From positions 6,155-70,154 of the forward strand of contig JAZDMG010000007.1 in the NCBI GenBank assembly GCA_043801165.1: a stretch of DNA of 64,000 bases, written 5' to 3'. The position numbers were made by a program, and so were the translations under genes. This document shows, one piece after another, positions 358 through 45,700 of the stretch. Within the stretch, counting starts at the first letter, position 1. Every line of letters begins with the position of its first letter. Below the pieces are notes generated by a model that saw only the letters and a program-made list of their open reading frames with translations, ran no database searches and was not told the origin of the DNA. The stretch comes from an archaeon (GTDB lineage Archaea; Nanobdellota; Nanobdellia; Woesearchaeales; SM23-78).

Positions 358-1569
358 TTATTGCTGTTTAAGAAATTCTATTAATGGCATCATGTTTTCT
401 TTTTTTAGTGATTTTGATATTATCAGCTTAGTGAATCCTTTGTGTTTTCTGCTAAATTCTTCTAGTCCTTTTATTTCTCTCTCATTGATGTTGTCTGTGG
501 CCGTTACGTTTATGGCTGTCTTTCCGATAATGAAGTCTACTTCTGATGCTGATTCTCCCCAATAGCTTATTTCTTGATTACTCAAGGCTAACTTGATCAG
601 CACAGCGTTCTCGAACTTCTGTCCTTCATTGCTTGAATAATTATCATTTACGATGCTTACAAATCCGGAGTCTGAGCAGTACAATTTTGGCAGTTTTGAA
701 ACATCGTGCCTGATTTTTGCTGAGAACGAAAAATAAGTCACTTCAACCAATAGATAAGAATCGATCATGTAATTAATGTATGTTTGAAGGGTGTCTTTTG
801 CCATTCCAAATACCTTTGATAATTTGTTTATGCTTACCTTTGATCCTGATGTTGAGACGAGATATCTTGCCAGGTCTATTAGCTGTTTGGTGTTTCTTAT
901 CGAGTATCTGTTGATGATATCCTTGTTTACTATGTCTTCGAAGTATTGCTGCAGGATTATTGTTTTTTTTTCTTCTGATTTTTCAAGGGTGACTTCCGGG
1001 AATCCCCCGTATCTCATGTATTCTTCCAGGCTTTTATGCTTGGTGAAATAAGTGAATTCTTGGAATGAGAGCGGCATTATGGTGAATGATATGTTCCGTC
1101 CGGTCAATAGGGTTGATAATTCTTTTGATAATAATGATGCTGATGAGCCTGATATGGTGAATTTTATGTTCTCCCCCAGGTCGTATTTTGTCCTAACCCA
1201 TTTCTCCCAGGAGGGTATTTTTTGGGCTTCATCTATGAAAAAATATGTTTTTCCCTTGTTTTTTGAGTATCCTTTGTATGCCTCTAGTATTTCATCGAAT
1301 AGCTCTATTTTAAGGTTGTCTGCGAAGCTGTAATCCTCTAGGTTGACGTATAATATCTGTTTTTTGCTTATACCTGCTTTTATCAGCTCATGGATCAGCT
1401 GTTTTATGATTGTTGATTTGCCGCCTCTTCGTATTCCCTTTAATACTATTATCTCTTTGCGTTCAAGGAACGGGAATATCTTCTTGATGTATGATTCTCT
1501 TATTATCCCTGAGTCTATGTCTTTTTCCCAAGGATTCCATTTAGCTAATATTTTGATTATATCTTCCAT
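358..1569 (-). CDS. AAA+ ATPase of the COG1373 type (AAA_14-like N-domain, DUF4143-like C-domain)
   Basis: 403-aa ORF with Walker A GIRRGGKST and Walker B-like YFFIDEAQ. Domain order is typical of the archaeal/bacterial COG1373 family. Exact TTTATAAA box lies 26 nt upstream of the ATG. Clearly more AT-rich than neighbouring genes. Confidence 0.8.
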   Translation of the reverse strand: MEDIIKILAKWNPWEKDIDSGIIRESYIKKIFPFLERKEIIVLKGIRRGGKSTIIKQLIHELIKAGISKKQILYVNLEDYSFADNLKIELFDEILEAYKGYSKNKGKTYFFIDEAQKIPSWEKWVRTKYDLGENIKFTISGSSASLLSKELSTLLTGRNISFTIMPLSFQEFTYFTKHKSLEEYMRYGGFPEVTLEKSEEKKTIILQQYFEDIVNKDIINRYSIRNTKQLIDLARYLVSTSGSKVSINKLSKVFGMAKDTLQTYINYMIDSYLLVEVTYFSFSAKIRHDVSKLPKLYCSDSGFVSIVNDNYSSNEGQKFENAVLIKLALSNQEISYWGESASEVDFIIGKTAINVTATDNINEREIKGLEEFSRKHKGFTKLIISKSLKKENMMPLIEFLKQQ

Positions 1570-11920: not shown

Positions 11921-14900
11921 ATGATATTTCATATAACGACTGAAGGAAAAAACAAGATGGCAGATGCAAAAAACAGGAGAGAGATGATGTTCAGGGTATT
12001 GATACTGCTGATGATCATCCTCTCATTCAAGGGACTCATCACCGTTGTTGAGTTCCTCGGCTACGCATCACTTGATTCAGAAGGAGGCACAATCTCAGAG
12101 ATAGACCTGACTATAAAATATGATGTGGCGAGCTGGAGCGCGCTCTATGGCACTGCCTGGGGAGTTGGCTGGAGCCAGGACTGGGAATTCAACATGACAG
12201 GCAACACCTCGCTCTCCCAGGCGATGAATGAGAAGCATCTGCTGTTCAACTGCTTTGAAGCAGGAATCGAACATGAGATATACGCCAGCATGGTGCCGTC
12301 GATCGACATTGATTTCGCCAGCCTAACAGCCGCTACCACTGCAGAATATGACGCGTATATGGGTATTGGCTCAAGCTCATTTTATTCTGCCACCAACACT
12401 TTCACATCGATAGATACATACCAGATGGGAGAACAAACAATCAATGCGCCGACCACCTACACGTTTGTGACAGGCAACACGACCCCGACAAGTTTCGCAA
12501 CAGGAATCCTGAGGGATTCATCAGGCAATCTTGTGCTGGTGACCAAGATACTGCAATATCCAGTCACTGGTTTCCAGGGTTCAAGATTCAACTATCAGAT
12601 AATGCTGCCCATACCTCCAGAAACATTCCAGGATTATTTTGTCTGGAGCGACCCGACAGATGTCTGCCCAGAAGGCCAGGGCACTGCGCCATGGGAAGGG
12701 TGGGTCTATGGAAATGTCACCGATACCAACGGCAATCCAGTAAGCGATGCTATCGTAGAGGTGGCAGGAGAGACTGACCTAAGCGACAATATCACAGGAG
12801 CTTATAACATAACTTCAGAAGAAGGTAACAAAACCATCTATGCCATGAAGACAGGGTACCGAGTATACAGAGGGAACGTCACCATATTGAGAGGCAACGG
12901 GACTGTGCACAATATCGTGATGGTGATGGAGCAGCCGCCTAACCCTCCGTTGACAGGAATAGGCCCAGGAATCGACGCACCAGGCACCCAGACCCAGACA
13001 GGAGTTGACTCAGAGGGGATAAAGACAAAGGATGCATCCTATGACTTGCCTCCGGTGATGCAGCGCCCAAAAAAGATAGAAGGGACTGATTATATAGTAT
13101 CCATCTCTGAGATAAATAGGAAGATCAGGCTAGGAAATTTCCTCCAGGAGAAAGTGACCCTTTACAGCTTCAAGGAGAAGCAGGCCAACATAAACTTCGC
13201 ACTTGAAGGGAATGTATCACATCTCATAAAATTGGACAAGGAGAGCATGATGCTCTCGCCTCGCTCATCTGACTTCCTGACAGTGACCATCTTTGGAGTG
13301 GGAGAGCCAGGATTATATAACGGTAGCTTGGTGATGTCTGGTGATTTCAATGCCACAATCTCTATCACAATAGAGGTACTGGACAAGGAGAAGCTGCCTG
13401 TCGAGGCGCTGCTGATAGACCTTGAGATGAACAAGAAGACTGTGTTCCCGGGAGACACCATCCAATTCAAGACAGATCTCAGGAACCTGCTCACAGACCA
13501 ACAATATCCCGTGGCCTTGTTCTATAGCGTCCAGAGCCTTGACGGAAAAGACACCCTATGGACCTATGAGACCAATGCCTTCATCAGGACATCGTTCTCC
13601 ATGCTTAAGAGCGCGATGCTGCCAAAGAATGCGAAGACAGGAGACTATGTGCTGAGAGTGACTGCCAGCTATCTCGGTCTCACATCAGGGACCAGCACCA
13701 TGTTCAGCATCACCACGCCATGGTACCTTGTGATATTGTTCGGATCATTGAGAGTCTGGCACGGATTACTTATCCTATTAGTCATAGTGCTCATGGGATT
13801 GGCCTATTGGCAGATCAAGAAGAAGATAGAATCAAAGAAGAAATTCCACCTGAAGGTCGAGATGGCTGAGCTGCCAAAGCCAGGGGCGAGGAGCATCTGG
13901 GTCGGAAAGATCGCAGAGACAGACCACAAGACCTATTTCAACATGGAGAGCTTCATGACTCACTGCATCGACGCAGGAAGCACAGGCAGCGGCAAGTCAG
14001 TATCAGCCCAGGTCATAGTTGAGGAGATGCTACAGAAAGGAGTGGCTGTGATCGTGTTCGACCCGACAGCACAATGGACAGGAATGCTCAGGAAATGCGA
14101 TGACAAGACAATGCTTGCGCTCTATCCATATTTTGGGATGAAGCCGAAAGATGCCAGGCCATTCAACGGCAACATCAGGCAGGTCACCAACCCGCGAGAG
14201 ATCATCGACATAAAGAAATATGTCAAGCCAGGCGAGATCCAGGTATTCGCCTGCCACAAGCTTGAGCCGAGAGAGATGGACATCTTTGTGACCAATAGCA
14301 TCAGGCAGATCTTCAGGGCTAACTTCGGAGAGAGCAGAACCCTTAAAGTCCTGTTTGTCTATGATGAAGTCCACAGGTTGCTGCCGAAGTTCGGTGGTAG
14401 CGGCGAAGGTTTCCTGCAGATAGAAAGAGGCTGCAGAGAGTTCAGAAAATGGGGTCTGGGCATGCTTCTCATCTCACAGGTCCTGACAGACTTTGTCGGT
14501 ACCATCAAGGCCAACATCAACACAGAGATCCAGATGAGAACAAGGGACGAGGGCGACCTTGAGAGGATCAAAGTGAAGTATGGTGATGATGTCCTCAAAT
14601 CACTGGTCAAGGCAACCATAGGAAGCGGGATGATAGAGAACCCGCAATACAACCGAGGTAAGCCATATTTCACAGCATTCAGGCCGCTCATGCACAGTGT
14701 GCAGAGGCTGACTGACGAAGAGATCGAGAAATATAACGAGTACAATGACAAGATTGACCAGATGCAGTTCGAGCTTGAGCAGCTTGAGAAACTGGGCATC
14801 GATATATTCGACCTGAAACTAGAGCTGAAACTTGCGACTGATAAGGTAAAGACAGGAAGCTTCAACATGGCCCAGATCTACCTGGAAGGCCTCGCGCCAA

Positions 14901-15877
14901 GAGTGAAGAAGCACTGGGAAAAGCTTGGGAAGGTTCCAAAGAAGCTTGAGAAGAAGCTCATCTCAGATGAGGACCTGCAGGCAGATATTGCCAAGGCAAG
15001 GAAAGCAAGAGAGGATTATGAAGCAGAGACTAAGAAGAACAAGCCGGCAGAGGCAGCAAGCACAGAGAAGAAAGATGTGGATTTCTTCAGGAAGGATGTT
15101 GATCCTGACAAGATACTCAAGCTGGTCAATGGCATGCTGGTGATTAACATGGCCAGCCTCTACGATGAGATCGCTGCCATGAGGGATGATGATTATGATA
15201 AGCATGTGACTGCAGAAAAGAATGATTTCGCGAGATGGATTGAATTTGCAGTAGGTGACAAAGAGCTGGCCGACCATGTGCAGCTGGCATCTGGCAAGAA
15301 AGGGATACTCGATCTGCTTGACTTGAGAAAGACAAAGAAGCCATTGCCGAAGCTTGATCCTGAGCAGATCAAAAAGACCAAGGCAGCAGAGGCAGTGGCG
15401 AACCTCTCAAAGCCGCCTGAGGCGATAAAGCCAGCAGAAGCACCTGCTCAGGCAGCACCGACCATGCCTACTCAAACAGATGAAGCATCTACTCCAGCAG
15501 TGGCATCGATCGCTCAGGAGACATCAGCAACACCAATGGAATCCGCAAGTCATGAGTCAGTCCATGAATTCCAGTCAACAATAGAATCCACGACCGATGA
15601 GGAGGATTACTTCGTCAAGATGGTGGAACCAGAGAAGGTGCTCAGCCTGGACAATGGCATGCTTGTCATGAGCATCGAGAACCTTTACGATGATGTGAAT
15701 GCCATGAGCCAGGATGAATTCAATCATTATGTGAATGCGAGCAGCAATACGTTCGCAGATTGGATCAAGGACGCCGTAGGCGACAAGACACTAGCTGAGA
15801 GAGCTACCAAGGCGATGGAGAAAGAGAAGTTCATGAAGCTGCTTGAGATGAGGAAGAACAAGCAGAAAATCGATTGA
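11921..15877 (+). CDS. Membrane-tethered HerA/FtsK-like (COG0433/DUF87-type) P-loop ATPase with a ~600-aa glycosylated ectodomain and two C-terminal NDFxxWI modules
   Basis: 1318 aa. N-terminal anchor, ectodomain including a CarboxypepD_reg-like segment (GWVYGNVTDTNGNPVSDAIVEV), and a TM helix at nt ~13721-13810. Walker A GSTGSGKS at ~13975-13998 and Walker B VLFVYDEVHRLLP at ~14351. REFRKWGLGMLLISQ...NTEIQMR is typical of HerA-like ATPases. Coiled coil, then two ~70-aa repeats at 15095-15330 and 15623-15855. Confidence 0.8.
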   Translation: MIFHITTEGKNKMADAKNRREMMFRVLILLMIILSFKGLITVVEFLGYASLDSEGGTISEIDLTIKYDVASWSALYGTAWGVGWSQDWEFNMTGNTSLSQAMNEKHLLFNCFEAGIEHEIYASMVPSIDIDFASLTAATTAEYDAYMGIGSSSFYSATNTFTSIDTYQMGEQTINAPTTYTFVTGNTTPTSFATGILRDSSGNLVLVTKILQYPVTGFQGSRFNYQIMLPIPPETFQDYFVWSDPTDVCPEGQGTAPWEGWVYGNVTDTNGNPVSDAIVEVAGETDLSDNITGAYNITSEEGNKTIYAMKTGYRVYRGNVTILRGNGTVHNIVMVMEQPPNPPLTGIGPGIDAPGTQTQTGVDSEGIKTKDASYDLPPVMQRPKKIEGTDYIVSISEINRKIRLGNFLQEKVTLYSFKEKQANINFALEGNVSHLIKLDKESMMLSPRSSDFLTVTIFGVGEPGLYNGSLVMSGDFNATISITIEVLDKEKLPVEALLIDLEMNKKTVFPGDTIQFKTDLRNLLTDQQYPVALFYSVQSLDGKDTLWTYETNAFIRTSFSMLKSAMLPKNAKTGDYVLRVTASYLGLTSGTSTMFSITTPWYLVILFGSLRVWHGLLILLVIVLMGLAYWQIKKKIESKKKFHLKVEMAELPKPGARSIWVGKIAETDHKTYFNMESFMTHCIDAGSTGSGKSVSAQVIVEEMLQKGVAVIVFDPTAQWTGMLRKCDDKTMLALYPYFGMKPKDARPFNGNIRQVTNPREIIDIKKYVKPGEIQVFACHKLEPREMDIFVTNSIRQIFRANFGESRTLKVLFVYDEVHRLLPKFGGSGEGFLQIERGCREFRKWGLGMLLISQVLTDFVGTIKANINTEIQMRTRDEGDLERIKVKYGDDVLKSLVKATIGSGMIENPQYNRGKPYFTAFRPLMHSVQRLTDEEIEKYNEYNDKIDQMQFELEQLEKLGIDIFDLKLELKLATDKVKTGSFNMAQIYLEGLAPRVKKHWEKLGKVPKKLEKKLISDEDLQADIAKARKAREDYEAETKKNKPAEAASTEKKDVDFFRKDVDPDKILKLVNGMLVINMASLYDEIAAMRDDDYDKHVTAEKNDFARWIEFAVGDKELADHVQLASGKKGILDLLDLRKTKKPLPKLDPEQIKKTKAAEAVANLSKPPEAIKPAEAPAQAAPTMPTQTDEASTPAVASIAQETSATPMESASHESVHEFQSTIESTTDEEDYFVKMVEPEKVLSLDNGMLVMSIENLYDDVNAMSQDEFNHYVNASSNTFADWIKDAVGDKTLAERATKAMEKEKFMKLLEMRKNKQKID

Positions 15878-15900: not shown

Positions 15901-16386
15901 ATGGAAGAACAGCAAAGTGACGAAAAGGAGCAGGCAGAAGATGCTGAGCTGAGGAAGATAGTCAACACGATCGCAGAGACCAATCGCAAGATCGACGATG
16001 AATACGATGAGAAGATCAAACGCCTTGACGAGAAGAGAAGGCTCAACGCTGAAGACAAGGAGAAAGAGGAGCGCGATGAAAGGTTGTCTGTGGTCAAGGA
16101 GAAGCTCGCAGACCTCAAAGCGATGGTGGGAGATGCCAGGAGATCAGGCAAGGATCCTTTCATCGCAGACCTGATGCTGAGAAATATCAATGCAAAGATT
16201 AAGATGGCTTCTGTCACCGACAACAAGCATGATTTCGATGTGATAGAATCAATCATGAAGGACGCTGAGAATGAGCTGAAAGAAGCGATGGCTGAAGAGC
16301 CATTGGATGTCAAGAAAGAGATCCAGAAAAGGCTCAGGGAGACTGTGCAGAAGGAGACCGGAAAGGTCAACGAGGAGGAGAACTGA
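15901..16386 (+). CDS. Acidic coiled-coil protein, unknown function
   Basis: 161-aa E/K/D-rich helical ORF in the same operon. No domain recognised. Confidence 0.55.
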   Translation: MEEQQSDEKEQAEDAELRKIVNTIAETNRKIDDEYDEKIKRLDEKRRLNAEDKEKEERDERLSVVKEKLADLKAMVGDARRSGKDPFIADLMLRNINAKIKMASVTDNKHDFDVIESIMKDAENELKEAMAEEPLDVKKEIQKRLRETVQKETGKVNEEEN

Positions 16387-18158: not shown

Positions 18159-18752
18159 GTGATCGGCAACCCTCTTGAACAGGACATAATAGAGCTGTAC
18201 TCAGACAACATTAGTTCTATATATAGCATCAACCAGATAGCAGGCAAGCTGGGCAAGAAGTACCCCTACATCAACAAGAAAGTAAGTCTTCTGATAAAGA
18301 ACAGGATCTTCAAGAAGATTGTCGTCGGCAGGTCCTACCTGTGCTCCCTCAACCTGAGGAACGACGAGACAATATACCTCCTAATCCTTAACGAGATAAA
18401 GAGGAAGAAAGCAGAGCTTGAAGCCCATCCCAAACTCCAGGGGACAATGGATTACCTGGACAAGGTAAAAAAAACAATCCCAATCCAGCTTGTAATCAAA
18501 AGCAAGGAGAACCTTTTCTTTGTGTTCGAGGGATCAGATGACAAGGAGCGGTTCGAGAAAGGCACTTTCAAGCAGCTATTCTCCCATTACCAGATGGAGG
18601 CGCTGACAAAGGAGAGCTTCCTTGCCATGCTCGTGGAGGACAAGGATATCCAGGAGAATCACATAATACTCCACGGATTCGAGAAATACTACGCCTATCT
18701 GAAGGAGATTGAGACAGAGCTTAACCTGAAGTATTCTAAATTGATGCCGTAA
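18159..18752 (+). CDS. Winged-helix-like regulator, paralogue of 54475-54990
   Basis: 197 aa with a GTG start. IYSINQIAGKLGKKYPYINKKVSLLIKNRIFKKIVVGRSYLCSLNLRNDETIYLL aligns with LTINQLSKSIKKSYAFTNQHAHALMKSNILNRKAVGSAILCLLNLKNEETIAHL in the paralogue. The stop lies 1 nt before the giant gene's ATG. Confidence 0.6.
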   Translation: MIGNPLEQDIIELYSDNISSIYSINQIAGKLGKKYPYINKKVSLLIKNRIFKKIVVGRSYLCSLNLRNDETIYLLILNEIKRKKAELEAHPKLQGTMDYLDKVKKTIPIQLVIKSKENLFFVFEGSDDKERFEKGTFKQLFSHYQMEALTKESFLAMLVEDKDIQENHIILHGFEKYYAYLKEIETELNLKYSKLMP

Positions 18753-18753
18753 A

Positions 18754-21700
18754 ATGAAGAGAGCAAAAGCCAGTAGGAAAGCGAAAAACAAGATGAGAGC
18801 ATGGCCAGAGAGGCGAGCCACGGTAGCGACAGCCAGGCCCATGCTATTCACAGCCATATGCATCATGCTGTTCCTGCTCAGCAGCGCTCCTCTCCTAGGA
18901 GAGAATCCGCCTACTGAAAAAAGGCTCTACCTATCTGTGGAGAAGCCAAGCTTCAGCATAGGCGAGTCCATCATGCTGATAATAACAGGTGATTCATTAA
19001 GTGATTATGAGATGGTACTGAGCTCTGCCAGCACCAATTACAAGTATAATGGAGAGCTGAAGAACAACATCGCATTCTATCCGCGAGAGGCAGGTGTGCA
19101 TCGCGCAGAGCTCATAAGCAAGCTGACAAAGCAGCCGATCGATTCATTGGAGTTCATGGTAGGATCATCTGCTGCTTCAGAATCACAAGCCAACACATCC
19201 GACCAGGACCAAACATCAAATCCTAGTGGCACGGCTTCAGAATCAGGTGAATCAGAGCCTTCAGGCTCGCCAGTGATTGTCCTGAACAAGCAGAGATATT
19301 TATTGGGAGAGCAGGTGAATGTCAGCATACGCATAGCCCTTGAAGAGCAGCAGGATTATAGGCTCTACTACGAATACGAAGGCCTTAGCCAGAGATACAT
19401 GGGTGACTTCTCAGCCATAAGCTTTGCTCCCCTTGGGATCGGAACCCATCATCTGGTGCTGAAGAGCAGCGATAATGCTATAATCGCACAGTCGAGTTTC
19501 GAAGTGTCAGAGGCGATCGCATCTATCAAGAATGATATCAAAGATGAAAAAGACAATGCTAGTGCTAAAATCCAAGGAGATGAAGCATTCTTGAAGAGGG
19601 TGCTGAATGTCCGCGACAGCTCAGGAACAAAGGAAACCTTCTATGTCAGTATGATTAGAAAAGCACCTGCAGAATCACCAATCGAACCAACAACGAAAAA
19701 AACAGGGCTGAGCGGAAATGGAACTGACCTGACTAACAGCACAAGAAACAACAGCATCGACCAGAACACGACCGCGGCCTATGACCTGTATGACCTGGAG
19801 CTGACCATCACAGGAAAAGCGGTCAGCAGGATAACACTCAACAACCTAAGGCTGAGCAATGATTCCAACATATCGATGGGCATCGATGATGTTCCTTTGG
19901 AAAAGGCAAGCTCAGCCAAGATGAGAGCAGTCAAGGCATTCGCCATAGACCCATCACATCTTGATTTCACAGACGGCTCAGCCACATTGATAGCCACAGG
20001 TAGAGAGCTGTGGAAATGCAAGGATTGGTCTTTCGATAGCCAGAGCTGTGCAGGCAGCTGGAGTAAAGTGATGGAACTGACTCCAGGCCAGGAATATAGC
20101 ATAGCATTGAGCCCTGAGGACCCTGGCTACGCAGAGACTGGAGTGGCCAGCATCAACACAAGGAAGTCAACATATCATCCTGGCGAGAGCGCCGAGATAA
20201 TAATAGTGGTGCTTGATAACCAAGGCCGTCTGACCTCTGATGCTAGCGTCGAGCTGGCGATAACATTGCCGGACAACCAAAGCAATCTTTTTTCCACATC
20301 AGCAGGCACCTTGTCTTCAGAGCAGAAAGGAATCTTCACAGCAACATTCGACCAGACAGGCAAGGAAGGCGATTACATAATGGTTGTCAATGCTCTTGGA
20401 GCGAATGTGAACAGCACAATGATATCATCATTCACAGTGAGCTCCTACTATGAGTTCGACATCATCAGGGATGCTCCTGTGGTGATCGACCCGTGGCAAG
20501 GGCCATTCACATCAAGGATAAGATTAATATCATTTGTTGCCAACTCATCAAACCAGAGCTTTGACCTCGTGGAAGTGATGCCTGCCAGTTTCAACATAAC
20601 AGACTCTGGCGGAGGGACAGAGAGCATCGCCAACAACACAAAACAGCTGAGATGGTACGGTCTCACGAATGATTCTGAGGTAAGCTACTCTGTGCAGGCG
20701 CCGCTGGTGACGCCAGAGCTCTACAATTTAGGGCAGAGCATGGTGATATACGATGCGATCGGATCAAATGGGACGAACGGGTCAAGCGCGACTTTCACAG
20801 AGGCCAGGCCCTGGTACCTGGCAGCAGACCCTGCATTCGTAGGATCATTCTTCATGCTCTGGGATAATACTTCAAATGCCCCTTCAGGATGGACCTGCGT
20901 CTCATGCGTCGCAGGAGATCCTTTCTACAGCAGGCTCATAAGGGGAGACCCTAGCTATGGAAGCACAGGAGGCCAAACAGGCCACAGCCACACAATCGCC
21001 TACCAAAGTGAGACTCTTGGAGATCCTATAATCTACGCTAGCTCAGGAGGAACTTCAGGAGGGGCAAGGGCTTCAGGAGGCCACACTCATGAGGGGATAG
21101 ACGCAACCACAACAGGGACTGCTTCCAACTTCCCTAGCTTCAGGCAGCTGAAGGTGATAGCTTACACGAACGGTCTTCCCTCAGCGATACCCACAGGAGC
21201 AATAGGAATATTCAACACAACAAGCCTGCCGGCTGATTGGACCAGATATTCTGCTGAAGATGGCTATTTCATCCTTGGAAATGGGACATCAAATGTGACC
21301 GGCGGTTCAAACAACCACAGCCATTCCATCAGCATAACCACATCAACATCATCAGGCACCAGCACCGCTAGAACCGGAGGGACACAATTACCTGTCGGAG
21401 CCAGTGGTCACACCCATACAGCGACAGGAAACACCAACACGACTGAGAACATACCTTTATATGTTGACGTCATACTTGCAAAGGCAACAACAAACACAGC
21501 GATACCCTATGGCCAGGGATTCATAGGAATGTTCAACAGCAGCGTAGGAGATGGCTGGGTCAACATGTCCCAGAGCGGCCAGCCATTCTACCATATGATG
21601 ATAAGAGCCAATAATGTCTCTGGAGCAACTGGCGGCAATAACCAGAGCACACATGCCAACACAACGGTGACAACCGGAGCGCCAGGCACTGGCAATACAA

Positions 21701-24700
21701 GATCAGGCAGCGGCAGGAACTTCTCAGATCCGAGTCACACGCACGAAATAGGGATATCATTCAACACAACCAGCCACCTGCCGTCGTATATCAATGTGGT
21801 ATTCGGCTATGCGAACAGCACGCCGCCCTCAGTTCCGACGATAAACACAACCCAATGCTATAGCCCAGGATTCGGCTGGATAAATTGCACCACCTTGGCT
21901 TTCAACAGCAACTTCACCAGCGTAAGGACAAGATGCACATCTAACAATGGCGTGCTGATAAATAATGTTTCATTCATATTCATCAATCAGGAAGACAACA
22001 AGACATTCTTCAACGTGACAACGACAGACAACAGCACAGGCTACTGGACCTATGACATAGACGACATACTGATCCAAGACTCTGGAAGCATGAATCTCTC
22101 AGTCATATGCCGGGATAGCATGGAATCGAACCAGACCATCTCATGGTCAATCCCCTGGGGAACATTATCATCCTCATTGATAAACCCGACAAGCAACAGG
22201 AATGTATCACAGAACAAGTTCTTCAACTTCACAGCAAGGATCGCCTGCAGCGGAGGAGAATGCGGCTACATCAAGGCAACATTAGACCCTGAGACCATGT
22301 GGTGGAACAGGAGCTGGAAGAACAGGAAACAGGTCTACATCAACACCACCAACCTGCTGCCAGCAAGATATACCGTCGAGACCAACATGAGCACCACAGG
22401 CAACGGGTTCCTGAGCAACAACAATGATGTAAGGGTCGTGTACTGGAACGGCACAGCGAACATAGAGATTGACAGGCACATACTGAACAACAACACAGCG
22501 AACGCAACCATATTCTTCGCGATACAGAGCAACATATCAGCAGGCACGACAAACAACACCGCCTATTATATCTACTACAATAATTCTGCCGCATCGACGC
22601 CTCCAAAGAACCTAAGCAGGATATTAGTCTATGCAGCAGACTTCGAGAGCGGCACCGAATCATGGACCGTGGCAGGCCAATCATACACCTGGGAGCGGGC
22701 CAGCGACCTTCTTGGAGCAAGCGTCACTGGGTGCAGAGGAAGTGATTGTGACGAACCAGCAAGAGCCATCTCAGGCGATTACGCCTGGGGGACCAACATC
22801 GGAGGGATATATCCAAACGACGCAAGCACTTGGGGATATGTGCAATCGACAGCGATGGACCTGTCAGCATACGCCGCAGAGAATCTCACTCTTTCATACT
22901 TCAAGGCATGGCAGCTTGAGGGAGCAAGCTATGATTACGCGAGGATAAGGATATCGAATAGCTCAGCATTCACGACAGCGACCACCATAGAGACATTCAA
23001 CCCAGCAACAGGCTGCGACGCAACATGCCCATACTATGATTGGTCAACCACCAAAGCCAACGTAAGCGCATACGACACAAACCTGTACATAAGATTTGAA
23101 ATGCAGACAGATACTGGCTGGCAATGGACAGGATTATACTTTGATTTCATAACAGTGAGGATAAACACCTCCAGCGCCCCAGCGGTAGGAATTGGCGCTG
23201 CCCAGAGCGAAATCAAAGGAGCTGTACCTGTGGGTTCAGGGACGCCATTCTACACGACAAATGCAAACCCGATGTATGCTGTGGACAATGACTGCCTCGG
23301 CAACATGATGCCTGGAAGCAGTTGCAACACGACCTGGATGGTGAACGCAACAGGCAACATAAATTCCACCTGGACCTTCTTCGCGACCTATGAGTCAGAG
23401 AACTACTCATCCTACGTCAGCCAATCAGCCACTTCGTCAATCAACATAACTATCCTTGATATGGTGCCCCCATCGATCAGCAACATCCAGTGCTATAAAA
23501 TAGGGACTGGATGGACTGCCTGCTCGAATATCCTCTTCAACAGCAACCTGACGGATATAAGGGCGCAGTGCAGTTCTGGAGAAGGAGCGAACATAACCAA
23601 TGTGACATTCACCCTCTCGAACAAGGATGACAACAAGACAATATTTGATGTGGTGACAACTGACAACAGCACAGGCTACTGGTACTATAACCTGACCGAT
23701 ACGATAATACAGGATTCCGGAGACATGAACCTTTCGGTGACCTGCACAGACGCAGATGGCGGTGTTGGTGTGAGCAAAGTGGATTGGTCGATACCTTGGG
23801 GAACCCTCTCGGCCTTTTTGATCAATCCGACAACAAACATCAATGTCACCAGGAATAGGTTCTTCAACTTCACAGCAAAGATCAACTGCTCAGACGGAGA
23901 GTGCGGTTCGATAAATGCCAGCGCCTTGCGGAATACCAGCATCTTCGGCTCTGGCAAGGACGGAGCATTGACCGTGAGCGCGGCCAACAGCATCATAAAC
24001 AACTACACCTATCTCACAGCGAACGCATCAAACGGCACCACAGTGATAAGTGTCAACTCTGCCGCAGAGCTATCTGTCGGAGATGAGATATTGATAATCC
24101 AGATGCAGAATTTCAGCGGCGGGACTGCTGGAGTATATGAATTCGCCACCATCATATCAATAAGCAGCAACAACCTGACTCTGAACTCAAGCATACAGAA
24201 CACCTATCGTATTGGAACGCTCAATACGACCAACGCGACCGCGACCCAGGTGGTAAGAGTGCCGCAGTACTCCAACCTCACCATCAATACAGGAGCTTCA
24301 GTGACTGCGCCGGCATGGAACGGCTATCGTGGAGGTATCGTGGCCTTCAAAGCGACAGGAATCGTGAATGTCAGCGGAATCATCAACACTTCTAACCTCG
24401 GCTACAAGGGTGGGCTCGGGATAGCAGCATCAGGAGGGCCTCAGTATGCATACCAAGGTGAATCATTCAACGGGCTCGGATCTGCTGCCAATGCAGCAAA
24501 CCTTGGAGGCGGAGGAGGAGGATACAACGATCTTGGAGGAGGAGGTCTTTCTGGCGCGTCCGGAGGAGGAGGAGGCTATGCCAGCGTAGGAGACGCAGGA
24601 GACACATCTCCGGAAGGGCAAAGCGGAGGCTCTGGAGGGATTACCTATGGGAATTCCCAGCTATCACAGCTGCATCTTGGTTCTGGAGGAGCAGGAGGAG

Positions 24701-27700
24701 GATCTGACAACAATGGCGCAATTGACGGCACTGACGGAACCAGGGGTGGAGGAATCATATTCATAAAAGCCAACAGCCTCATCGTATCAGGAGCCATAGA
24801 ATCAGACGGCCAGGAGAGCACAGGAGCCTCCAACCAGTGGGCTGGTTCTGGAGGAGCAGGGTCAGGAGGGTCGGTCTATCTCTCGTCGAACAGCATGAGC
24901 ATAGGATCCTCACTGGTCTCATCTACAGGTGGCATCGGTGGATGCGGAGATACTGGGCGGTGCGGAGGAGATGGAGGTAATGGGAGGATACGCCTAGATT
25001 TCATCGGCATCTCAGGATCTCCTGCATCATCAGCAGCCTACAATGGGACATTGAATGAGACAATATTCCTGCTCATAAGCACAGCCTCGGGCGATACACC
25101 TCTGTTCACCAATGCCGCTAATCCTATGTATGCTACCAACAACAGCTGCCTCGGCAACATGATAGCAGGAAGAAGCTGCAACACGACCTGGTCAATAAAC
25201 GCGACCGGAGAGACATATTCTTCATGGATGATATTCGCATCCTACAGCTCGCTCAACCTATCATGGCTCAAGGTGAACACCAGCAGGGTGAACATCACCA
25301 TAATCCCTAATCTGGCGCCAAGTGTCACATCAGTGGTGATAGTCCCTGACAGGCCAAGGTTTGATCAGGACCTTAACTGCACATTCACAGTATCAGACCC
25401 TAACCTCGAGGATTCACTATCAGCGAACGTAAGCTGGTTCAGGGATGGGGCGCTGGTGTCATCAGCTCTTGTCAGTGTGACCCAGAATGTGTCAAAGGTC
25501 GAGACATTGGGCTATGGAAATCTCACAGCTGGTGAGGTGTGGTGGTGTGGGATCACGCCATCCGATGGCCTTCTATCCGGAAACCAGGTCAATTCCTCCA
25601 ATGTGACCATTCTCGCATCAATGCCTCCAGATGTAAGCAACATCGAATGCCAGAGGAACAGGGCGATCTGGGTGAGCTGCCCCAGCATGGCCTTCAACCA
25701 AAACATCACTGCCGTGAGGGCGATATGCTCAGACACAGATGGATACGTAGTCAATGCAACATTCAGCCTTTCCAACATAGAGGATTCCAAGACATTCTTT
25801 ACAGACACAACAACCGACAACAGCAGCGGCTATTTCACGCTTGACAATCCAGACATCACCATAACCGATTCAGGGATCTTCAACCTAAGCGTCAGCTGCA
25901 TGGATAATAATGACACCGAGGGTTATGGAAACTCAACCTGGCTGGTGCCCTGGGGAACCCTGATCGCGTCCCTTGTGGATCCGTCGGCTGATGCCAATGT
26001 GACAAGGAACCGGTTCTTCAACTTCACCGCCATGATCAACTGCTCCGGAGGAGAATGCGGGTACATAAACGCGACGCTAGACCCGACCAACTGGTGGAAC
26101 TCATCATGGGGCTATAGAATCACAATAGCACTTTCTGAGATGGCCAATCGGAATCTCAGCCTCTACCAATTCAAAGTAAACATCAGCACCCAGGCTCTCA
26201 TAGGCGCCGGAAAGATGAATGCTGACTGCAGCGACATAAGATTCATCAGCAACACATCAAAGCAGTTAGACTACTGGATAGAATCAGGATGCAACACGAC
26301 AGGCACAATAATTTGGGTCGTGAATAACCTGAGCGCGAAAGCGAATACGACCATGAACATGTATTATGGGAATCCCGATGCCGGCGCCCAAAGCAACGCG
26401 ACCAAAACCATGTTCCTATATGAGGACATGAGCAGTGCACCTGGCGGATCGCTCACTGGAAACGCCACCTATATCGACGCGACATGGGGCGTCAGGCTGA
26501 CCGTTGCAGCCAATGACCTGTTGGGATACCTATATTACATAAAGAATCCAGGCGTAGGATTCTACGGATACTATGAGACCTGGGCTGGCGGAGGCTCAGG
26601 AGCAGACGCCACCTGGATCGGGGTGCATGACAACTCAGCAAGCTCAGCAAGAGAGGACGTAGTTGATGGAGGCTATCACTTCACCGTAGATGAGTATGGG
26701 ACCAATGGAAATAACGGCAGAATCGCCTTCACCAAGAGCACAGTTGACAACGGAGCGCCAATCGCCTCCTGGACTAACAACAATCTTGACGACTCAGCCT
26801 GGCATACGCTAGAGGTTTATTTCTACAACAATGGCACAACCGCCAATGCAGAGCTCTATTATGACGGGGTCCTGAGAGTTAATGGAACCGACAGCTCTCC
26901 TCAGAGCACGAGCGGTAATTACATGAGCTTCGCAGGAAGGACAGGAGGAGAGACAAACCAGCACTACATCAGGAAGATAATAATAAGGAAATACGTTGAC
27001 CCGGAACCGACTGTGACACTTGGCGATGAAGTGCAGCAGACTAAGGGAATAATCCCCATGGGCAACGGCACACCGTTCTACACCATAACAGCCAACCCCA
27101 TGTATGCTGCCAACAACAGCTGCCTAGGCAACATGAACATGGCATCAGAAAACAGCTGCAACACAACATGGGAAGTAAATGCGACAGGCAACACAGGCAT
27201 CCCCTGGGAGTTCTTTGTGACCTACAGCTCGCTGAACTATTCAAGCTACGTAACCATAAACATCACCCGAAGAATAAATATAACTATTGTAAACAACACC
27301 GCACCCCGAGTGTCTGCCATCCTGTTGACTCCTGAATATCCCCTCCCGACAGAGGACCTCAACTGCACCTTCACAGTGTCTGATTCAAACCTCGGCGATT
27401 CTCTCAGCGCAAACATCACATGGTACCTGAACAACACAGCATACAGCTCTGTGAACTTGAGCGTAGGTAATGGAGTGTCTCAGTCAGTGATACTAGGCTT
27501 CGGCAACATCTCGTTGGGCCAAATCTGGCATTGCGGGGCCACTCCATCAGACGGAGAGGTCTTCGGAGCCCAGGTCAACTCATCGAACGTCACCGTAGTG
27601 CTCAGCAAGCCGCCAGTCATCAATCAGGTCCAATGCTACATCAACGGCTCGACATGGACCAACTGCTCAAAGCTAAGCTTCAAGTCAAACCTCTCTGGCG

Positions 27701-30700
27701 TGAGAGTCAACTGCACCACAAGCTACATGCCCATATGGAACGTCACAATCAACTTCACCAACACGCCAGATTCGACGCTCTTCTTCACCAACACCACCAA
27801 CATCAGCTCTGGCGGGTGGTGGACGGTATACAGGAATGTCACCATCAATGACTCAGGCGAGTTCGTCGTCGGAGTGACTTGCACCAACAATGAATCTGCG
27901 AAGGACACAGAGGCTGTGAACTGGACTGTGCCCTGGGGAAAGATAACCCTAACATTGATTAATCCTAATAGCGACGGCTATGTGGAATATGAGCGGTTCT
28001 TCAACTTCACAGCCCAGGTGAACTGCATCCTGGGCGAGTGCGGAGACATCAATGCCATGCTTGACCCTGAGACTGAAGAGACCAAGCAGCACATAGCATC
28101 TTTCCTGCCGACCAAGTACGAGATTAGAAAATCGGTCGCTGCTTTCCCAGAGCAATCGCCAGGCACAGAAACACCAAGCATGGAAACGAAAACAATGGCT
28201 TCTGCTGCCTATGCGGCCTATGCTACCTATGATGCTTCTGCTGGTGCAAAGACCGGCAATGGAGGGAACAGGGCGTATCCTGACGGTATGGTTACCATCA
28301 ACTCCATGAGGCCGAGCTATGACATCGGAGAGGCTGCTGAGCTGGTCGGGACAGTGCTTGACAGCAGGGGCAATTTTGTGCCGAGCGCTGACCTCCGCAT
28401 GATAATAACAAGCCCGAGCTCCCAGAGAAGCATCTTCACCTCATCTGACCTGAAGGAGCTGGCGCCGGGCCTCTACGAATTAACATATGACCTGTCCCGC
28501 GAATCAGGCATCGAGCCAGGCATCTATTCTGTCGAGTTCATCTCTGCAGGAGAGATTAAGGACAGCATGGGCACTGCCTTTGAGGTGAAGAACATCAAGG
28601 ATTGTTCAGGATTCGAGATAACTAGGGATGCTCCTTTCGCAGTCAATCCCTGGGCTGGAGCCGATGGTCCTTTCGACATCTCAATCACAGCGGCAAGGCG
28701 CGACAGTGCATTGCCTGAGAGGTTCACATTAACAGAGACAGTGCCGCTCGCGCTTGATATCATCGATTCAGGAGGAGCAGACCATTGGATCTCGGAGCAG
28801 GAGCAAAAGCAGTATCTGATATGGTCAGGCCTGGGCGACAACTCAAGGGTGAGCTATCGCGTGTCTGCTCCAAAGATATCCCCTGAACGTTATGGACTCA
28901 GGGCAGCCATCTCTGCAGGAGGAAAAACATTCAAGGAGCCAAGGAGCTGGTTCATCGCAGTTGATCCTGCCAGCTATTATTCTGCAAGCAATGACACTGT
29001 AGAATATTATATCTCAGCAGGGACCTATACCGGAGCTGATGGGGGAAGCTATGCGAACACCGCGGCAAAGGATTGTTCTGGCGGAACCTGCACACAATCA
29101 AACGCATGGGTGACTGGCTTCATCAACATGAACACGATAGATGTGACCTGCCGCCTTAATACATCTCTCATGTTCAACATCAGCAACATAAAATCTGAAT
29201 ACATAAATAACATCACCGTCAGCTGGGGCGGATGCTGGCACGGCGACCAGGTGCTGACCAACGACAGGTGTGACAACCTGACAAGGCCTGAGTTCAGCTC
29301 AGGGACAGGAGGCGGGACATTCGACATGTGGATGCAGCATAACACAACATTCGAGAGCATGAGCTGCATCGACACCGCAGGAGGTGAGTGCGGATCAGCT
29401 GATGAGATAAGCCTGGGGACAGCCACCACATCGCCTGCATGGGGGAACGCCCATGGATACAACACATTCACCTTCAGGAAGGCAGACCTTGACAGCAGCT
29501 ATGTGAACAATAGCATCATCACATTGCTCTGGAGGACCTGGGGAGCAGGAGTATGCGCCAATGCAGCCAATGATGAGGTGCTCTTCGCGCTTGATTACGC
29601 AAACCTGACGGTCAACTGGAACTACCTGATAAAGAACGGGTCGATGGTCTCCATAGTGGAAGGGTCTGATCCATTCTACACGGTCGATGCCAACCCGATG
29701 AACAAGACCAACAACAGCTGCCTCTCGGCGATGAGAGTAGGCGGTGGCGGCTGCAATGTCACATGGCGTGTGAACGCTACCGGAGGAATAAACACCACCC
29801 ACATATTCTATGTCATAGCGAACACCTCGGTGTATCCGACAACTGTGATGCCGAATGAGAGCATCCATATAATGCTTACCATAAGGGACACCTCAAAGCT
29901 TCCACCGACAGTCACCCTCAATTCGCCTGAGAATAATTTCGCCACCACCAACACGACAGTCATCTTCAACTGCTCGGCCACGGATAACAGCGGCCTGACC
30001 AACATGACCCTCTACATAAACGTAAGCGGAAGCTTTGAAGAGAACGGGACCAACGACATCGGAGGGGTGAGCAACAGCACGCTCTTCAACAGGACCTATT
30101 TCGAAGGAAGGTTCCTGTGGAACTGCAAGGCCATGGACATCGACAGCAATGAGCGGTTCGCCACCACCAACAGGACTCTCATAATAGACCATACCAGCCC
30201 CTACATAGTGCTGTCTTCTCCCCAGGATTCGGATAATTTCAGCAGCTCGAACGTAACATTCAGGTTCACTGTCTTCGACAATGTGGCCATGACCCTCAAC
30301 TGCAACATAACGATAGATGACTCTGTGCGCGACCTGAACTTCACAGTATATGCCGAAAGCCCGAACGCTCGGAACATATTCAACATATCGCAGGGAGATC
30401 ACTTCTGGAACGTCTCGTGCGCTGACAATGCCGGCAACTGGAACATCAGCGAGACAAGGAACTTCACCTTGCTCAACACCCCCCCGACAGTCGTCCTCCA
30501 GACAATGGATGGCTACACCACAAACTCAGGAGATGTGGAGCTGTTCTATCTTCCAAGCGACAACTCAAATATTGTGCTGGCAGACCTCTACATCAACGGG
30601 AGCTGGTACAGGAATGAGACCGTAGTGGATAATGGGATCACCAACTCATTCAGCCTATTCGGATTCAGCGAAGGAAGATACAATTGGACTGTGAATGTGA

Positions 30701-33700
30701 CCGATGACGGAGGATTCACCGCCCAGGCTCCTGCGAAATGGTTCATCATCGACAAGACTGGGCCTTCCATCAACCTGGCCTATCCTGATGACAATTACTC
30801 GACAAATTCAAGTTCGGCAGTGATAAACTTCACGGTCATCGATAACTATGACCAGACGCTCATCTGCATTATAATCGTGAACGGGACCAATGCCACCTCC
30901 TATTTCAGCGCCGGCAATAACACTCCCATATCAAAGACTGTCTACGGCCTGAAGGACGGGCTGAATTACTGGAATGTCAGCTGCACAGATGATGCTACCA
31001 ACACCAATGTAAGCGAGACCAGGCGCATCAATGTCAGCGCTCCCCCGACGGTGGTGCTTAACACTCCGGCAGACAACTACTCACAGGCCAGCGGCAACAT
31101 AAGCCTGAACTACACCCCGGCAGACAACGTGGGCCTGCTCAACTGCACCCTCATCCTGAACGGGCAGAGGAATCAGACCAACAGCACCATCAACAACACC
31201 GTGCAGAACCGCTTCTTCCTGACAAGCTTGCCATCAAGCGACTACAACTGGAGCATAAATTGCACTGACACTGCAGGGCTGGTTGGATACTCGACAACCA
31301 GGATATTCAGGATAGACTCAACAGCGCCCACCATCACCCTCAACCGGCCACAGAACAACGATACCGTATACGGAGGGTTCGCAATATTCAACTGGACAGC
31401 CTATGACAACCTAGACCCGGTGCTCATGTGTAATCTCACTCTCGACGGCGCATTGAATAAGACCAACATCCCGTCACCAAACGGGCAGTCGGTGAATGTC
31501 ACTGTCCTGATACCGAATGAGACCTCGCACCTATGGAACGTCACATGTGCAGATGACTCTGGCAACAGGAACACCAGCGAGATGTGGAACTTCAGCAGCG
31601 TAAATGCTCCTACGGTCACGCTCATATTCCCGAAAGCCAACGAGATACTCAACTTCTCACAGAACATAAATTTCACATACATACCTGGAAGCAGCAACTC
31701 GCTCTCGATAGCAAGACTTTTCCTGAACGGTAATCTAAACCAAACAACACCCAACCCAAACAGAAGCGTTGAGAACTATTTCTTCCTAAATCTCTCTGAC
31801 GGAATATACAATTGGAGCGTCAGCATAACAGACAACATGAGCCTCAACGGCTCAAGCGAGACAAGGTTCTTCAGGGTGGACTCTACTCCTCCGATCGTCA
31901 CCGTGATAACCCCATACCAAGGGCAGACCGTGAATGACAACGATGTCACATTCTCATTCAACGTGACAGACAACCTGGGAGGCTATGTCAACTGCACCAT
32001 ATATTTCGGAGGGGAGCCTGAGTGGAGCAACATCAGCACCTCGAGTGGCAGCACAATCACAAGGTACAAGACATTATTCGACGGAAGCTACAATTGGAGT
32101 GTCAACTGCACAGACGTGGCGAACAACACAAACGCATACCAGCTGATAAATTTCACCGTCGATGCGCCGCCCAACGTCACCATCAACTTCCCGCCGCCCA
32201 ACTACAGGACCAGGGACACCAACATATCATTCAACTACACCCCGCTGGACCCCATAGGATTCAACAACTGCTCGCTCTACATAAACGGCTCATGGATCCA
32301 GAACTCCAGCAACGTGGCAAGAAACGTCCCCAACTTCCTGAACACCACAGGACTGAACGAAGGAGCCTATATCTGGAACATAGAATGCTTTGACCAAGAG
32401 CCAGACTTTAACAACTACACGACCCCTCCACGCAACTTCACCATTGACCTGACAGGACCTAACATGTCGTTGCTGTATCCTGGGGCAGGAGACTACCTCA
32501 ACAGCAACACAGTGCAGTTCAACTGGACAGCGACTGATTATGCAGGAGTCAGCCTGAACTGCTCGCTGTTCATAAATGAAACATTCAACAGGTCATTGGC
32601 GCAGCAGTCAGGCAGCTATTTCACACCGACGGTCAACAACATGTCTGACGGGTCATATGATTGGTATGTGAACTGCAGCGATGACCTAAACAACTCAGCA
32701 TTGAGCGAGACAAGGGTTTTCACCATCAACAAAGCAGACCTTTACATAAATGACAGCAGGATAACATTCAACAACACCAACCCAGATGTCAACCAGACAA
32801 TAAACATAACCGCCAACGTGAGCAACATAGGAGGAATGCCAGCCTATAACGTCGTAGTCAGCTTCTGGGATGGCGATCCTGGCAGCGGAGGGACATGGAT
32901 AGGGAACAGCACTGCCACTGTCAACTACGCCAGCTCAGCAAGGTTCTCTGTGCTGTGGAACATCAGCGGAGCCATGCATACCATCTATGCCATAGCAGAT
33001 CCGGGAAGCCTCATTGCAGAGCTTGATGAGAGCAACAACAACGCAACAACAACGATATCTCCTCTGTACTCAACAATAACATATCCTGCTCAGAACATGA
33101 CATTCAATAGCAACAACGTGACTGTGAATTTCACGGTCTATGACTACAACGGCAGCACCCTCAGCTACACCCTATTCGCCAACGGGACAACCGTCGGGAG
33201 CGGATCAACGACAGATGGAGAACCACAATCTGTGCCTGTGACCATCAACGACGGGACCTGGATAATAAAAGTCGGAGTGACTGATGCGCTCGGAAGGAAG
33301 AAGAACAGCACAGGAGTCACGATATATGTAGACGGCACACCCCCATCCATAAGCTATTTCACGCCACCGACACCAATCAATAACTGGGTGCAGAGCAACA
33401 CAACGGTCACAATCAATGTCTCACACTATGATGTGCATCCTAATCAGATAATATTATACTGGCAGGGAGCAGCCAATGAAACCAGGACATATACAGGCAG
33501 CTTCTCAAACTTCACATTGTCAGGACTGACTGACGGGATATACAACTACTATGTCTGGCTCAACGATACCTACGGGCTATCAAACCAGACAGCAACACAG
33601 ATCGTCAGGATAGACCTATCAAATCCGGTGATAAATCTTGAGGCCCCAGCACCAGGAGCCACTGTCAACTCATCAGTGGTTGAGTTCGACTTCAATGTGA

Positions 33701-42609: not shown

Positions 42610-42681
42610 CAATTTGATCCAGCCAAACATTCAATAATCAAATTATCCAATCCATACCAGAAAAAAAGAGGTTGTACTTTC

Positions 42682-44640: not shown

Positions 44641-44768
44641 ACAGGAGATGGAAAACATATCGATAGTTTTAAAAAACCAAGAACCAAACAATGCTTTGGT
44701 TGGCCACAGGCCTAACCATAAACTGATAGCAGAGGAAAAGACAGAGAAAACAGGAAAGGAGGAATGAA

Positions 44769-45131
44769 ATGATGAAAAAAATAATGATAGTCGAGGATTC
44801 CAACCTGATGACCGCAGTCATTACCAATTTTGTGAAGAAAGAGGGCGACTATGATATAATCACGGCTAAAAATGGCGAAGAAAGCGTGACAAAATACAAA
44901 GAGCAAAAACCAGACCTGGTGTTCATGGACATAAAGATGCCTGGAATGGACGGCCTGGCTGCGCTCGAGATCATAAGGAAGATGGACCAATCAGCAAAGG
45001 TAGTCATGTGCACAGCCCTAAAAGAGGCTGAACAAGAGGATAGGGCAAAGAAACTCGGCGCAAAAGGATACATAAAGAAGCCTTTCAGCAGGGAAGACAT
45101 AGTCAAGGCACTGAAGGATAACCTGAGATGA
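44769..45131 (+). CDS. cheY: Chemotaxis response regulator CheY (copy 1)
   Basis: 120-aa single receiver domain with an intact acidic pocket (VEDS, FMDIKMPGMDG), T/S position and KKPF lysine. Confidence 0.9.
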   Translation: MMKKIMIVEDSNLMTAVITNFVKKEGDYDIITAKNGEESVTKYKEQKPDLVFMDIKMPGMDGLAALEIIRKMDQSAKVVMCTALKEAEQEDRAKKLGAKGYIKKPFSREDIVKALKDNLR

Positions 45132-45206
45132 GATGGAAATGCCATTTGCCACTAGCCATCAACTATAATCAATAATAGACTTTCATGAAAAACAGGAGGT
45201 GAAACA

Positions 45207-45566: not shown

Positions 45567-45700
45567 TCCTGGACCTAGGATCAGACCGAATCAAATCTGG
45601 CATCCAAAGATGGGAACCACACAGAAAAATTCTCCAAGAGATGATATGGCCGTAATAAATAGGTTCATGATTGCAAAAGACATTACCAAGGTGATCCAAC

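Follow-up and report, generated by a model that had tools for sequence, protein, structure and literature searches.

A DUF5752/OrfY repeat module is shared by HerA/FtsK-type and KaiC-type ATPases of a conserved woesearchaeal gene cluster

Six copies of a module of about 70 residues are encoded in a 64,000-nucleotide stretch of the genome of a woesearchaeal archaeon (contig JAZDMG010000007.1, positions 6,155 to 70,154), which is called the window here and is numbered from its first letter. The copies are carried by a HerA-like membrane ATPase and by two KaiC-like proteins of 655 and 364 amino acids (aa), referred to as K655 and K364. An initial annotation, made from the sequence of the window alone, had noticed the module and had considered it impossible to name with confidence. 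It can be named: each copy is the repeat unit of the family represented by Pfam DUF5752 (PF19027) and by OrfY. That the module is an autonomous domain, cytoplasmic and non-catalytic and about 70 residues long, is secure. We infer, with a probability of roughly 0.4 to 0.45, that it serves as a tethered protein–protein adaptor, which would bind another module or a shared cytoplasmic partner.

All six copies, each about 70 aa long, lie in frame in three plus-strand open reading frames (ORFs), at the places where the initial annotation had put them. The E-values in the following list were obtained with an outside profile built from 228 module instances of other proteins, and pLDDT is the predicted local distance difference test of AlphaFold2 (AF2).

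11921-15877, plus strand: carrier 1, the HerA-like protein, a 1318-aa membrane protein with a HerA/FtsK-type P-loop ATPase and two C-terminal modules
15095-15328, plus strand: HerA-like copy 1 (aa 1059-1136), HVTAEKNDFARWIEFAVGDKELA; E 3.5e-21; Pfam DUF5752 stretch 1098-1136
15329-15622, plus strand: linker between the two HerA-like copies, 98 aa, rich in P, A, E and T by sequence composition
15623-15853, plus strand: HerA-like copy 2 (aa 1235-1311, C-terminus), with the variant N-T-F-A-D-W-I; E 8.2e-21
55037-57004, plus strand: carrier 2, K655, with three modules, a K/E/P-rich linker of about 100 aa and a single KaiC/RecA-type domain (aa 417-651, nucleotides 56285-56989)
55037-55255, plus strand: K655 copy 1 (aa ~1-73), hairpin missing and N-terminal part predicted as a long helix; E 1e-17; AF2 pLDDT >90
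55349-55552, plus strand: K655 copy 2 (aa 105-172); E 3.2e-18
55745-55975, plus strand: K655 copy 3 (aa 237-313), complete, with hairpin and five helices; E 3.6e-26
58563-59657, plus strand: carrier 3, K364, with one module and a KaiC-type domain (aa 124-360, nucleotides 58932-59642)
58611-58829, plus strand: the single, N-terminal copy of K364 (aa 17-89); E 2e-23

A profile of the six copies, run against the six-frame translation of the window, matched exactly these six, and the next match had an E-value above 1. Because a search with a profile made from the copies themselves is circular, the profile was rebuilt three times, each time without one carrier protein. The omitted copies were recovered at E-values of 2.2e-11 and 2.2e-8 for the HerA-like protein, 4.6e-7, 1.8e-7 and 4.9e-19 for K655, and 2.6e-15 for K364. 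The outside profile detected all six copies as well (E 1e-17 to 4e-26), and neither this profile nor the six-copy profile found a seventh copy in the window. The homology of the six copies is thereby demonstrated, at pairwise identities of 22-45% between proteins and of 68% between copies 1 and 2 of K655. The signature H-V-x(3-4)-K-N-D-F-x-x-W-[IV], followed by L-A, is present in all six copies with variants, W, L and A being invariant. The shorter string N-D-F-x-x-W-I, by which the module had originally been described, is common to the copies in outline but not letter for letter, since HerA-like copy 2 reads N-T-F and K655 copies 1 and 2 read H-D-Y.

The three carriers belong to two ATPase families. 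BLASTP aligned K364 with K655 at 39% identity (E 4e-96), from copy 3 of K655 through the whole ATPase domain, which makes the two proteins paralogues; the module therefore resides on two families and not on three unrelated ATPases, as had been proposed. No sequence-level relationship was detected between the HerA-like ATPase domain and the KaiC-like proteins, and the proposed sharing of one module between a HerA/FtsK-type ATPase and KaiC-type ATPases holds. K655 and K364 match Pfam KaiC with 165.7 and 161.4 bits. An NCBI protein listed under "MAG: archaeon" (MAG, metagenome-assembled genome) shows 100% identity with K364, and a homologue of K655, P0001, is 81% identical and has the same architecture. 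The HerA-like protein has a transmembrane (TM) helix at aa 26-44, an ectodomain of about 565 aa with CarboxypepD_reg/Ig-like matches, a second TM helix at aa 610-628 (nucleotides 13748-13804) and then a lysine-rich stretch. Its ATPase domain spans about aa 650-935, with the Walker A motif GSTGSGKS at aa 686 (nucleotides 13976-13999). The DUF87/HerA central P-loop domain is matched with 40 bits against a cut-off of 23.2 bits, and the best solved match is HerA 4D2I (E 7e-8). Because the residues after the second TM helix are of the positive-inside type, the ATPase domain and both modules of this carrier are cytoplasmic.

The family assignment is likewise demonstrated. Against Pfam DUF5752, whose gathering cut-off is 23 bits, K655 reaches 44.2 and the HerA-like protein 27.7 bits; K364 lies just under the cut-off with 21.3 bits and is joined to the other copies by the leave-out profile described above. 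The matches span positions ~16-92 or ~58-205 of the 208-position DUF5752 model, copies 1 and 2 of K655 aligning with positions 58-205, so that the model holds two repeats of the module. The sole solved relative, OrfY of Thermoproteus tenax (PDB 4CSO), also has two repeats; the six-copy profile matched it at E 2e-4, and both repeats (TNDFARWVGEELNDDDLA and RNDFSRWLVEEFG) were aligned on N-D-F-x-R-W. The family itself is already catalogued: Pfam has an entry for it, a crystal structure has been solved, and domain annotation in databases marks some KaiC fusions as PF19027. The score of two of the three carriers, the signature and the fold agree with DUF5752. The compact two-repeat unit of about 200 aa is absent, K364 having one copy and the HerA-like copies lying 98 aa apart; the window proteins contain the DUF5752 repeat but are not canonical two-repeat members.

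The predicted fold is that of an OrfY repeat. The AF2 model of K655 copy 3 consists of a beta-hairpin followed by five helices, with a mean pLDDT of 87. Foldseek returned 4cso_A as the only confident match of this model, with a template modelling score (TMq) of 0.77 and a probability of 1.00; the E-value of 0.064 reflects the short query (77 residues). Viral predicted structures gave no match to the module. Copies 1 and 2 of K655 are without the N-terminal F-x-L-x-N-G hairpin, and a long helix is predicted there instead. The initial annotation had named two outcomes that would speak against a real module, namely segments that fail to align significantly under profile methods and a generic coiled coil or low-complexity stretch. 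The leave-out E-values and the globular AF2 model show neither.

The modules are tethered by disordered linkers of 30-100 residues rich in P, A, E and K. When K655 aa 1-175 was modelled with AF2, each of the two copies reached a pLDDT above 90, whereas the linker at aa 81-98 stayed below 50, and the predicted template modelling score (pTM) was 0.48. A folded domain on such flexible tethers fits a docking or adaptor role. The net charge of the window copies ranges from -7 to 0 and their isoelectric point (pI) from 4.5 to 6.8; the family median pI is 5.85, and 73% of the instances lie below pI 7.

An exhaustive profile search covering 1.84 billion representative proteins gave 4,451 module matches among representative clusters at E <= 1e-3 and 1,581 at E <= 1e-10; word-indexed protein searches with module profiles gave 27 and 7 small proteins only. 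The consensus of the 228 instances is F-x-L-x-N-G-x(3)-K-[NS]-L-x-E-L-x(3)-L-x(2)-M-D-D-x-x-F-x-H-H-V-N-x-x-K-N-D-F-A-x-W-[IV]-x(5)-D-x-x-L-A-x-K-[LI]-x(5)-K, in which W is conserved in 98%, L in 93-94%, N in 92%, K/R in about 87-90%, H in 84%, D in 83% and the second N in 56% of the instances. The domain architectures, whose tabulation the initial annotation had recommended, were established for the best 150 matches by masking the modules, clustering the remainder and scanning the same proteins with Pfam. The non-module parts fall into many unrelated groups. About 40 of the 150 are stand-alone module proteins of 80-150 aa, and about 35 have nothing but a single module joined by a linker to a C-terminal TM helix. 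A group of 24 comprises proteins of about 420 aa with two C-terminal copies 7-17 aa apart. HerA-like relatives or fragments account for 13, the full-length ones being 44-53% identical to the window protein with the same two C-terminal copies; nine combine a FlaC_arch coiled-coil motif with two copies, and six are KaiC fusions. Tandem copies occur in about half of the top matches. Among the best 150 matches, the only catalytic partner domains found were those of the two ATPase families.

The fusions are conserved together with their genomic setting. A genome scan with one genome per species and an alignment of HerA-like proteins as query gave at least 555 loci, of which 80 were kept; individual loci are given here by L numbers. 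The 80 loci are mostly labelled Woesearchaeota, Nanoarchaeota or "uncultured Methanosarcinales" MAGs, and their best segments are 65-69% identical. The HerA-like orthologues carry one to three modules in all 80. Conserved neighbours of the HerA-like gene are the genes for a 1036-aa PKD/Big protein (68 of 80 loci), a 375-aa coiled-coil protein (65), a giant protein (42) and a 161-aa protein (37). In the window, the cluster occupies 8066-41478, with genes for the 1036-aa PKD/Big protein, a 252-aa protein, the HerA-like ATPase, the 161-aa protein, the 375-aa coiled-coil protein, a 197-aa protein, a giant 6131-aa ORF (18754-37149) and a 1426-aa NEW3 protein, and 54475-63586, which includes the module-KaiC genes and the gene for a 1296-aa NEW3 protein. 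The neighbours of the carriers that bear on the argument are the following.

15901-16386, plus strand: 161-aa acidic protein, directly downstream of the HerA-like gene; no significant module copy
57001-58494, plus strand: 497-aa protein with two TM helices after carrier 2, cytoplasmic tail containing LQEEYF; a homologous gene stands in the same position in L084
59696-63586, plus strand: 1296-aa NEW3 surface protein after carrier 3, C-terminal TM helix, cytoplasmic tail containing VQEQYF

L084 (85% identical) repeats the order of the window, with genes for a methyl-accepting chemotaxis protein (MCP), CheW, CheC and DUF7504, a 171-aa protein, a three-module KaiC, a 485-aa protein, a one-module KaiC and a NEW3 protein; beyond the point that corresponds to the end of the window follow a 472-aa protein, a 175-aa DUF7504-like protein and a Ser/Thr kinase. 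L086 and L087 (57-58% identical) encode a giant protein of 5.2-5.7 thousand aa, a module-KaiC, a NEW3 protein of about 1320 aa, proteins of about 460 aa and 175 aa and a Ser/Thr kinase of about 830 aa. The gene pair KaiC-then-NEW3 is conserved in all three loci, and in relatives the cluster continues with the genes for a protein of about 460 aa, the 175-aa DUF7504-like protein and the Ser/Thr kinase of about 820-830 aa. The conserved synteny of the HerA-like and module-KaiC loci indicates that both ATPase families are components of one cluster. A literature search found no description of the whole woesearchaeal cluster, the 375-aa coiled-coil neighbour has no solved relative, and a plasmid collection contained no homologues.

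Within this cluster, the module is moved about. It occurs in 21 of 38 homologues of the 161-aa protein, at either end, and at the N-terminus of 25 of the 118 closest KaiC relatives. The module moves among several cluster components, including non-ATPase members, in different lineages. The window copy of the 161-aa protein is without a module. A stretch of this protein, NKHDFDVIESI (aa ~108-118), was considered as a degenerate seventh copy and was rejected at E-values of 0.15 and, with a broader profile, 15. The 161-aa protein either lost its module or never had one, and the stretch is remnant-like at a non-significant score.

A second, contrasting setting of the module is the glycogen operon. 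Three glycogen-operon contexts contain paired genes for stand-alone single-module proteins of about 100-120 aa; they are given here with the helix-turn-helix (HTH) and MarR regulators, glycosyltransferases (GT), glycogen-debranching enzyme (GDE) and family 57 glycoside hydrolases (GH57) that accompany them.

L061, 17560-22788 (Woesearchaeota): glycogen synthase, module, module, GH57, GT4/5
L088/L089 (L088 340-8300): GDE, glycogen synthase, HTH, GT, GH57, module, module
L090/L091 (L090 1305-10507): phosphorylase, MarR, module, MscS-like channel, module, 638-aa protein, two GH57

The module protein of L088 is named Woesearchaeota by NCBI, and genes for a SurA-type rotamase and homoserine dehydrogenase are neighbours of L090/L091. 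The conserved residues are the same in the glycogen-operon copies and in the ATPase-fused copies. Among five independent stand-alone contexts examined, two (L081 and L083) showed neither sugar genes nor other neighbours of informative kind. In T. tenax, orfY adjoins treT.

The window also encodes a complete che operon (41590-51510) between the two parts of the cluster, comprising CheB, CheA, two CheY, CheC/CheX, REC-CheD, CheR, a zinc-ribbon protein, an MCP, CheW, CheC and a 180-aa DUF7504/KaiC-like protein. Among the ORFs of the window that were scanned, none was identified as an archaellum gene. Genes of the che type also stand beside the KaiC cluster in L084, and in L018, L049, L069 and L079 some are found no more than 10 kb from the HerA cluster, whereas no che homologue was found within 10 kb in 75 of the 80 HerA-cluster loci. 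The 405-aa MCP ORF (48558-49775) overlaps the preceding 120-aa zinc-ribbon ORF (48259-48621) by 64 nucleotides, and the MCP probably begins at a later start codon than the listed one. The counterpart MCP in L084 is a 688-aa Cache-domain protein, so that the receptor differs between close relatives. In addition, the motif [LV]QxxYF-x(2-3)-[KT]-I-I/D...Y recurs in the cytoplasmic tails of three surface proteins, just after the C-terminal TM helix, at these positions:

41305-41322: 1426-aa protein, aa 1370
58255-58272: 497-aa protein, aa 419
63266-63283: 1296-aa protein, aa 1191

By eye the motif is SHOCT-like, and it has no Pfam match. Two of the three genes directly follow module-KaiC genes. 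In the 80 loci, the pattern [LVIM]QxxYF occurs at chance level (4 observed versus 3 in shuffled sequence), the flanks of these loci often ending short of the corresponding genes.

How the module works can be approached from these architectures. In the adaptor mechanism proposed here, the module would bind a second copy of itself or a common cytoplasmic partner, and this binding would keep the ATPases and the accessory proteins of an envelope apparatus together beneath the membrane. The proposal is based on the carriers that consist of the module and a membrane anchor or coiled coil only, on the shuffling among subunits, on the long tethers and on the small helical fold. Proteins made of a module and a membrane anchor make sense as receptors or tethers and not as enzymes. 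Because OrfY and the Pfam model hold two repeats, tandems are frequent and genes occur as adjacent pairs, module–module association is the natural first candidate, and a common docking partner, which the initial annotation had taken to be implied, is plausible. Several observations weigh against the adaptor. Conservation is highest in a polar loop and the helix start that goes with it (H-H-V-N-x-x-K-N-D-F), and this stretch is unchanged in stand-alone glycogen-operon copies of unrelated organisms; a universal small ligand would explain such conservation no less well than a protein interface. Foldseek did not recover 4CSO with the two-copy model of K655, and copies 1 and 2 are predicted to be independent beads and not an OrfY-like packed pair; as these two copies are hairpin-less and joined by a 31-aa linker, the result bears on them and not on module–module pairing in general. 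Nor is there an even-number rule, the totals of one, two, three and four modules being found in 10, 15, 23 and 4 loci (HerA sub-clusters). Finally, the depositors of 4CSO gave the molecule the name 'ORFY PROTEIN, TRANSCRIPTION FACTOR', which is the only functional statement found for the family; a literature search found no paper mentioning DUF5752 and none on OrfY/4CSO of T. tenax.

The main alternative, possible if rather doubtful, is a role as a metabolite sensor. The module, probably in paired form, would bind a small cytoplasmic ligand connected with the metabolism of alpha-glucans or compatible solutes; candidates are sugar phosphates, nucleotide sugars, trehalose and maltodextrins. On the ATPases it would act as a regulatory input, much as MshEN and PilZ domains do on the ATPases of secretion systems and pili. 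The gene pairs in the three glycogen operons point this way, as do the treT neighbour of orfY, the polar character of the conserved residues and their location in a loop; their identity in glycogen-operon and ATPase-fused copies favours one universal ligand over system-specific partners. However, many members are a module alone or a module with a TM anchor and have no output domain, small all-helical domains of 70 aa more often bind protein than ligand, and two of the five stand-alone contexts have no sugar genes. The N-D at the helix start and the F and W positions could also be structural only, as N-cap and core. A partner encoded in the window itself, for which the [LV]QxxYF tails, CheY and the 180-aa KaiC-like protein of the che operon had been suggested, is improbable. 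A membrane protein with an LQEEYF or VQEQYF tail does follow each module-KaiC gene, a third such tail is present in the 1426-aa protein, the KaiC-then-NEW3 pairing is conserved, and che genes adjoin the cluster here and in L084. Yet the tail pattern is at chance level within the available flanks of the 80 loci, and the surface of the module is equally conserved where the organism or operon is without these partners; together with the scarcity of che neighbours, this disfavours a partner of this kind. That the module binds DNA and guides DNA-handling motors, as the gamma domain of FtsK does from the end of a linker, is very improbable. The name given to 4CSO and the membership of the carriers in ATPase superfamilies that include DNA translocases and recombinases speak for it. 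Against it, the copies range from acidic to neutral, Foldseek matched nothing of the HTH or winged-helix type (HapR/TetR with a template modelling score of about 0.3 and a probability of at most 0.11), the module-bearing glycogen operons encode separate HTH/MarR regulators, and many copies are tail-anchored in the membrane. The chance that the module is an artefact of coiled-coil, low-complexity or accidental resemblance is negligible: nothing beyond the K/E-rich composition of the flanking linkers suggests it, and it is contradicted by leave-out E-values down to 5e-19, the Pfam match, the globular model, the solved homologue and thousands of homologues.

Two further features of the window concern its other genes. 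The 197-aa protein (18159-18752), whose gene precedes the giant ORF, and the 171-aa protein (54475-54990), whose gene precedes that of the three-module KaiC, are both without a Pfam match; they look like paralogues because both match the same ORF (L007 16081-16737). At the start of the window stand a gene for an AAA_14/DUF4143 ATPase (358-1569, minus strand) and a gene for an rve-family integrase (1635-2615). These two genes are without counterpart in the 80 related loci, which suggests the insertion of a mobile element.

The module and its carriers resemble known systems in part. With DUF5752/OrfY they share the H-V-x(3-4)-K-N-D-F-x-x-W and D-x-x-L-A signature and a matching fold. However, the catalogued family consists of stand-alone proteins of about 200 aa with two close repeats, whereas here single repeats on linkers are fused to ATPases, and in K655 copies 1 and 2 the hairpin is replaced by a helix. 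The glycogen-operon proteins, some of which are from Woesearchaeota (L061 and L088), contain the same module with the same conserved residues but are unfused pairs beside GH57, glycogen synthase, phosphorylase or an MscS-like channel and not beside envelope ATPases. By analogy, FtsK gamma, MshEN and the FHA domains of EssC are also small non-catalytic domains on a flexible linker of a hexameric-type P-loop motor, placed so that they can recruit or regulate, but they have no sequence or fold similarity to the module. FtsK gamma is a basic winged helix that binds DNA, in contrast to the acidic module, and MshEN binds cyclic di-GMP.

Of the ATPases themselves, carrier 1 belongs to the HerA/FtsK superfamily (HerA, VirB4/TraD-type, CedD) at the level of the DUF87 domain. 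It differs from the named members in its ectodomain of about 565 aa between two TM helices and in its C-terminal modules, and it scores at best 32.7 bits against the NCBIfam equivalogs NF040937, NF040819 and NF042943/4, whose cut-offs are 800-970 (600-970 over all models compared). Carriers 2 and 3 were compared with the archaeal single-domain KaiC-like ATPases KaiC_arch_3, ArlH and the P-loop protein GvpD. They share the single RecA-type domain of ArlH (NF052589) but reach 50.7 and 43.6 bits against its cut-off of 215, and 118 and 112 bits against the cut-off of 249 for KaiC_arch_3. Circadian KaiC (TIGR02655) has a double RecA-type domain and is matched with 98 and 89 bits against a cut-off of 546. 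Searches with PADLOC assigned none of the proteins to a defence system, the partial P-loop matches to the HerA and mad8 models scoring at most 48 bits.

What is new here is the repeat-unit view of DUF5752, the systematic use of this repeat across a woesearchaeal envelope cluster and the contrast with the gene pairs of glycogen operons. The true unit of DUF5752 is a repeat of about 70 aa that acts as a mobile cytoplasmic module and is found in two contrasting contexts, in glycogen operons and on the ATPases of a conserved DPANN envelope cluster. Speculatively, and with less likelihood than doubt, DUF5752 tethers may couple the parts of an undescribed envelope machine of Woesearchaeota, in which a membrane HerA/FtsK-type ATPase, KaiC-type ATPases and small coiled-coil or tail-anchored proteins would work under giant surface proteins, and which in some lineages adjoins, and may be controlled by, a chemotaxis operon. 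If so, a role of the module in glycogen operons would mean that one adaptor or sensor domain connects the carbon-storage status of the cell to the surface apparatus of a symbiont. To learn what the module binds would annotate thousands of proteins and would also open a first way into the large and conserved, yet uncharacterised, cluster of surface proteins and ATPases in Woesearchaeota.

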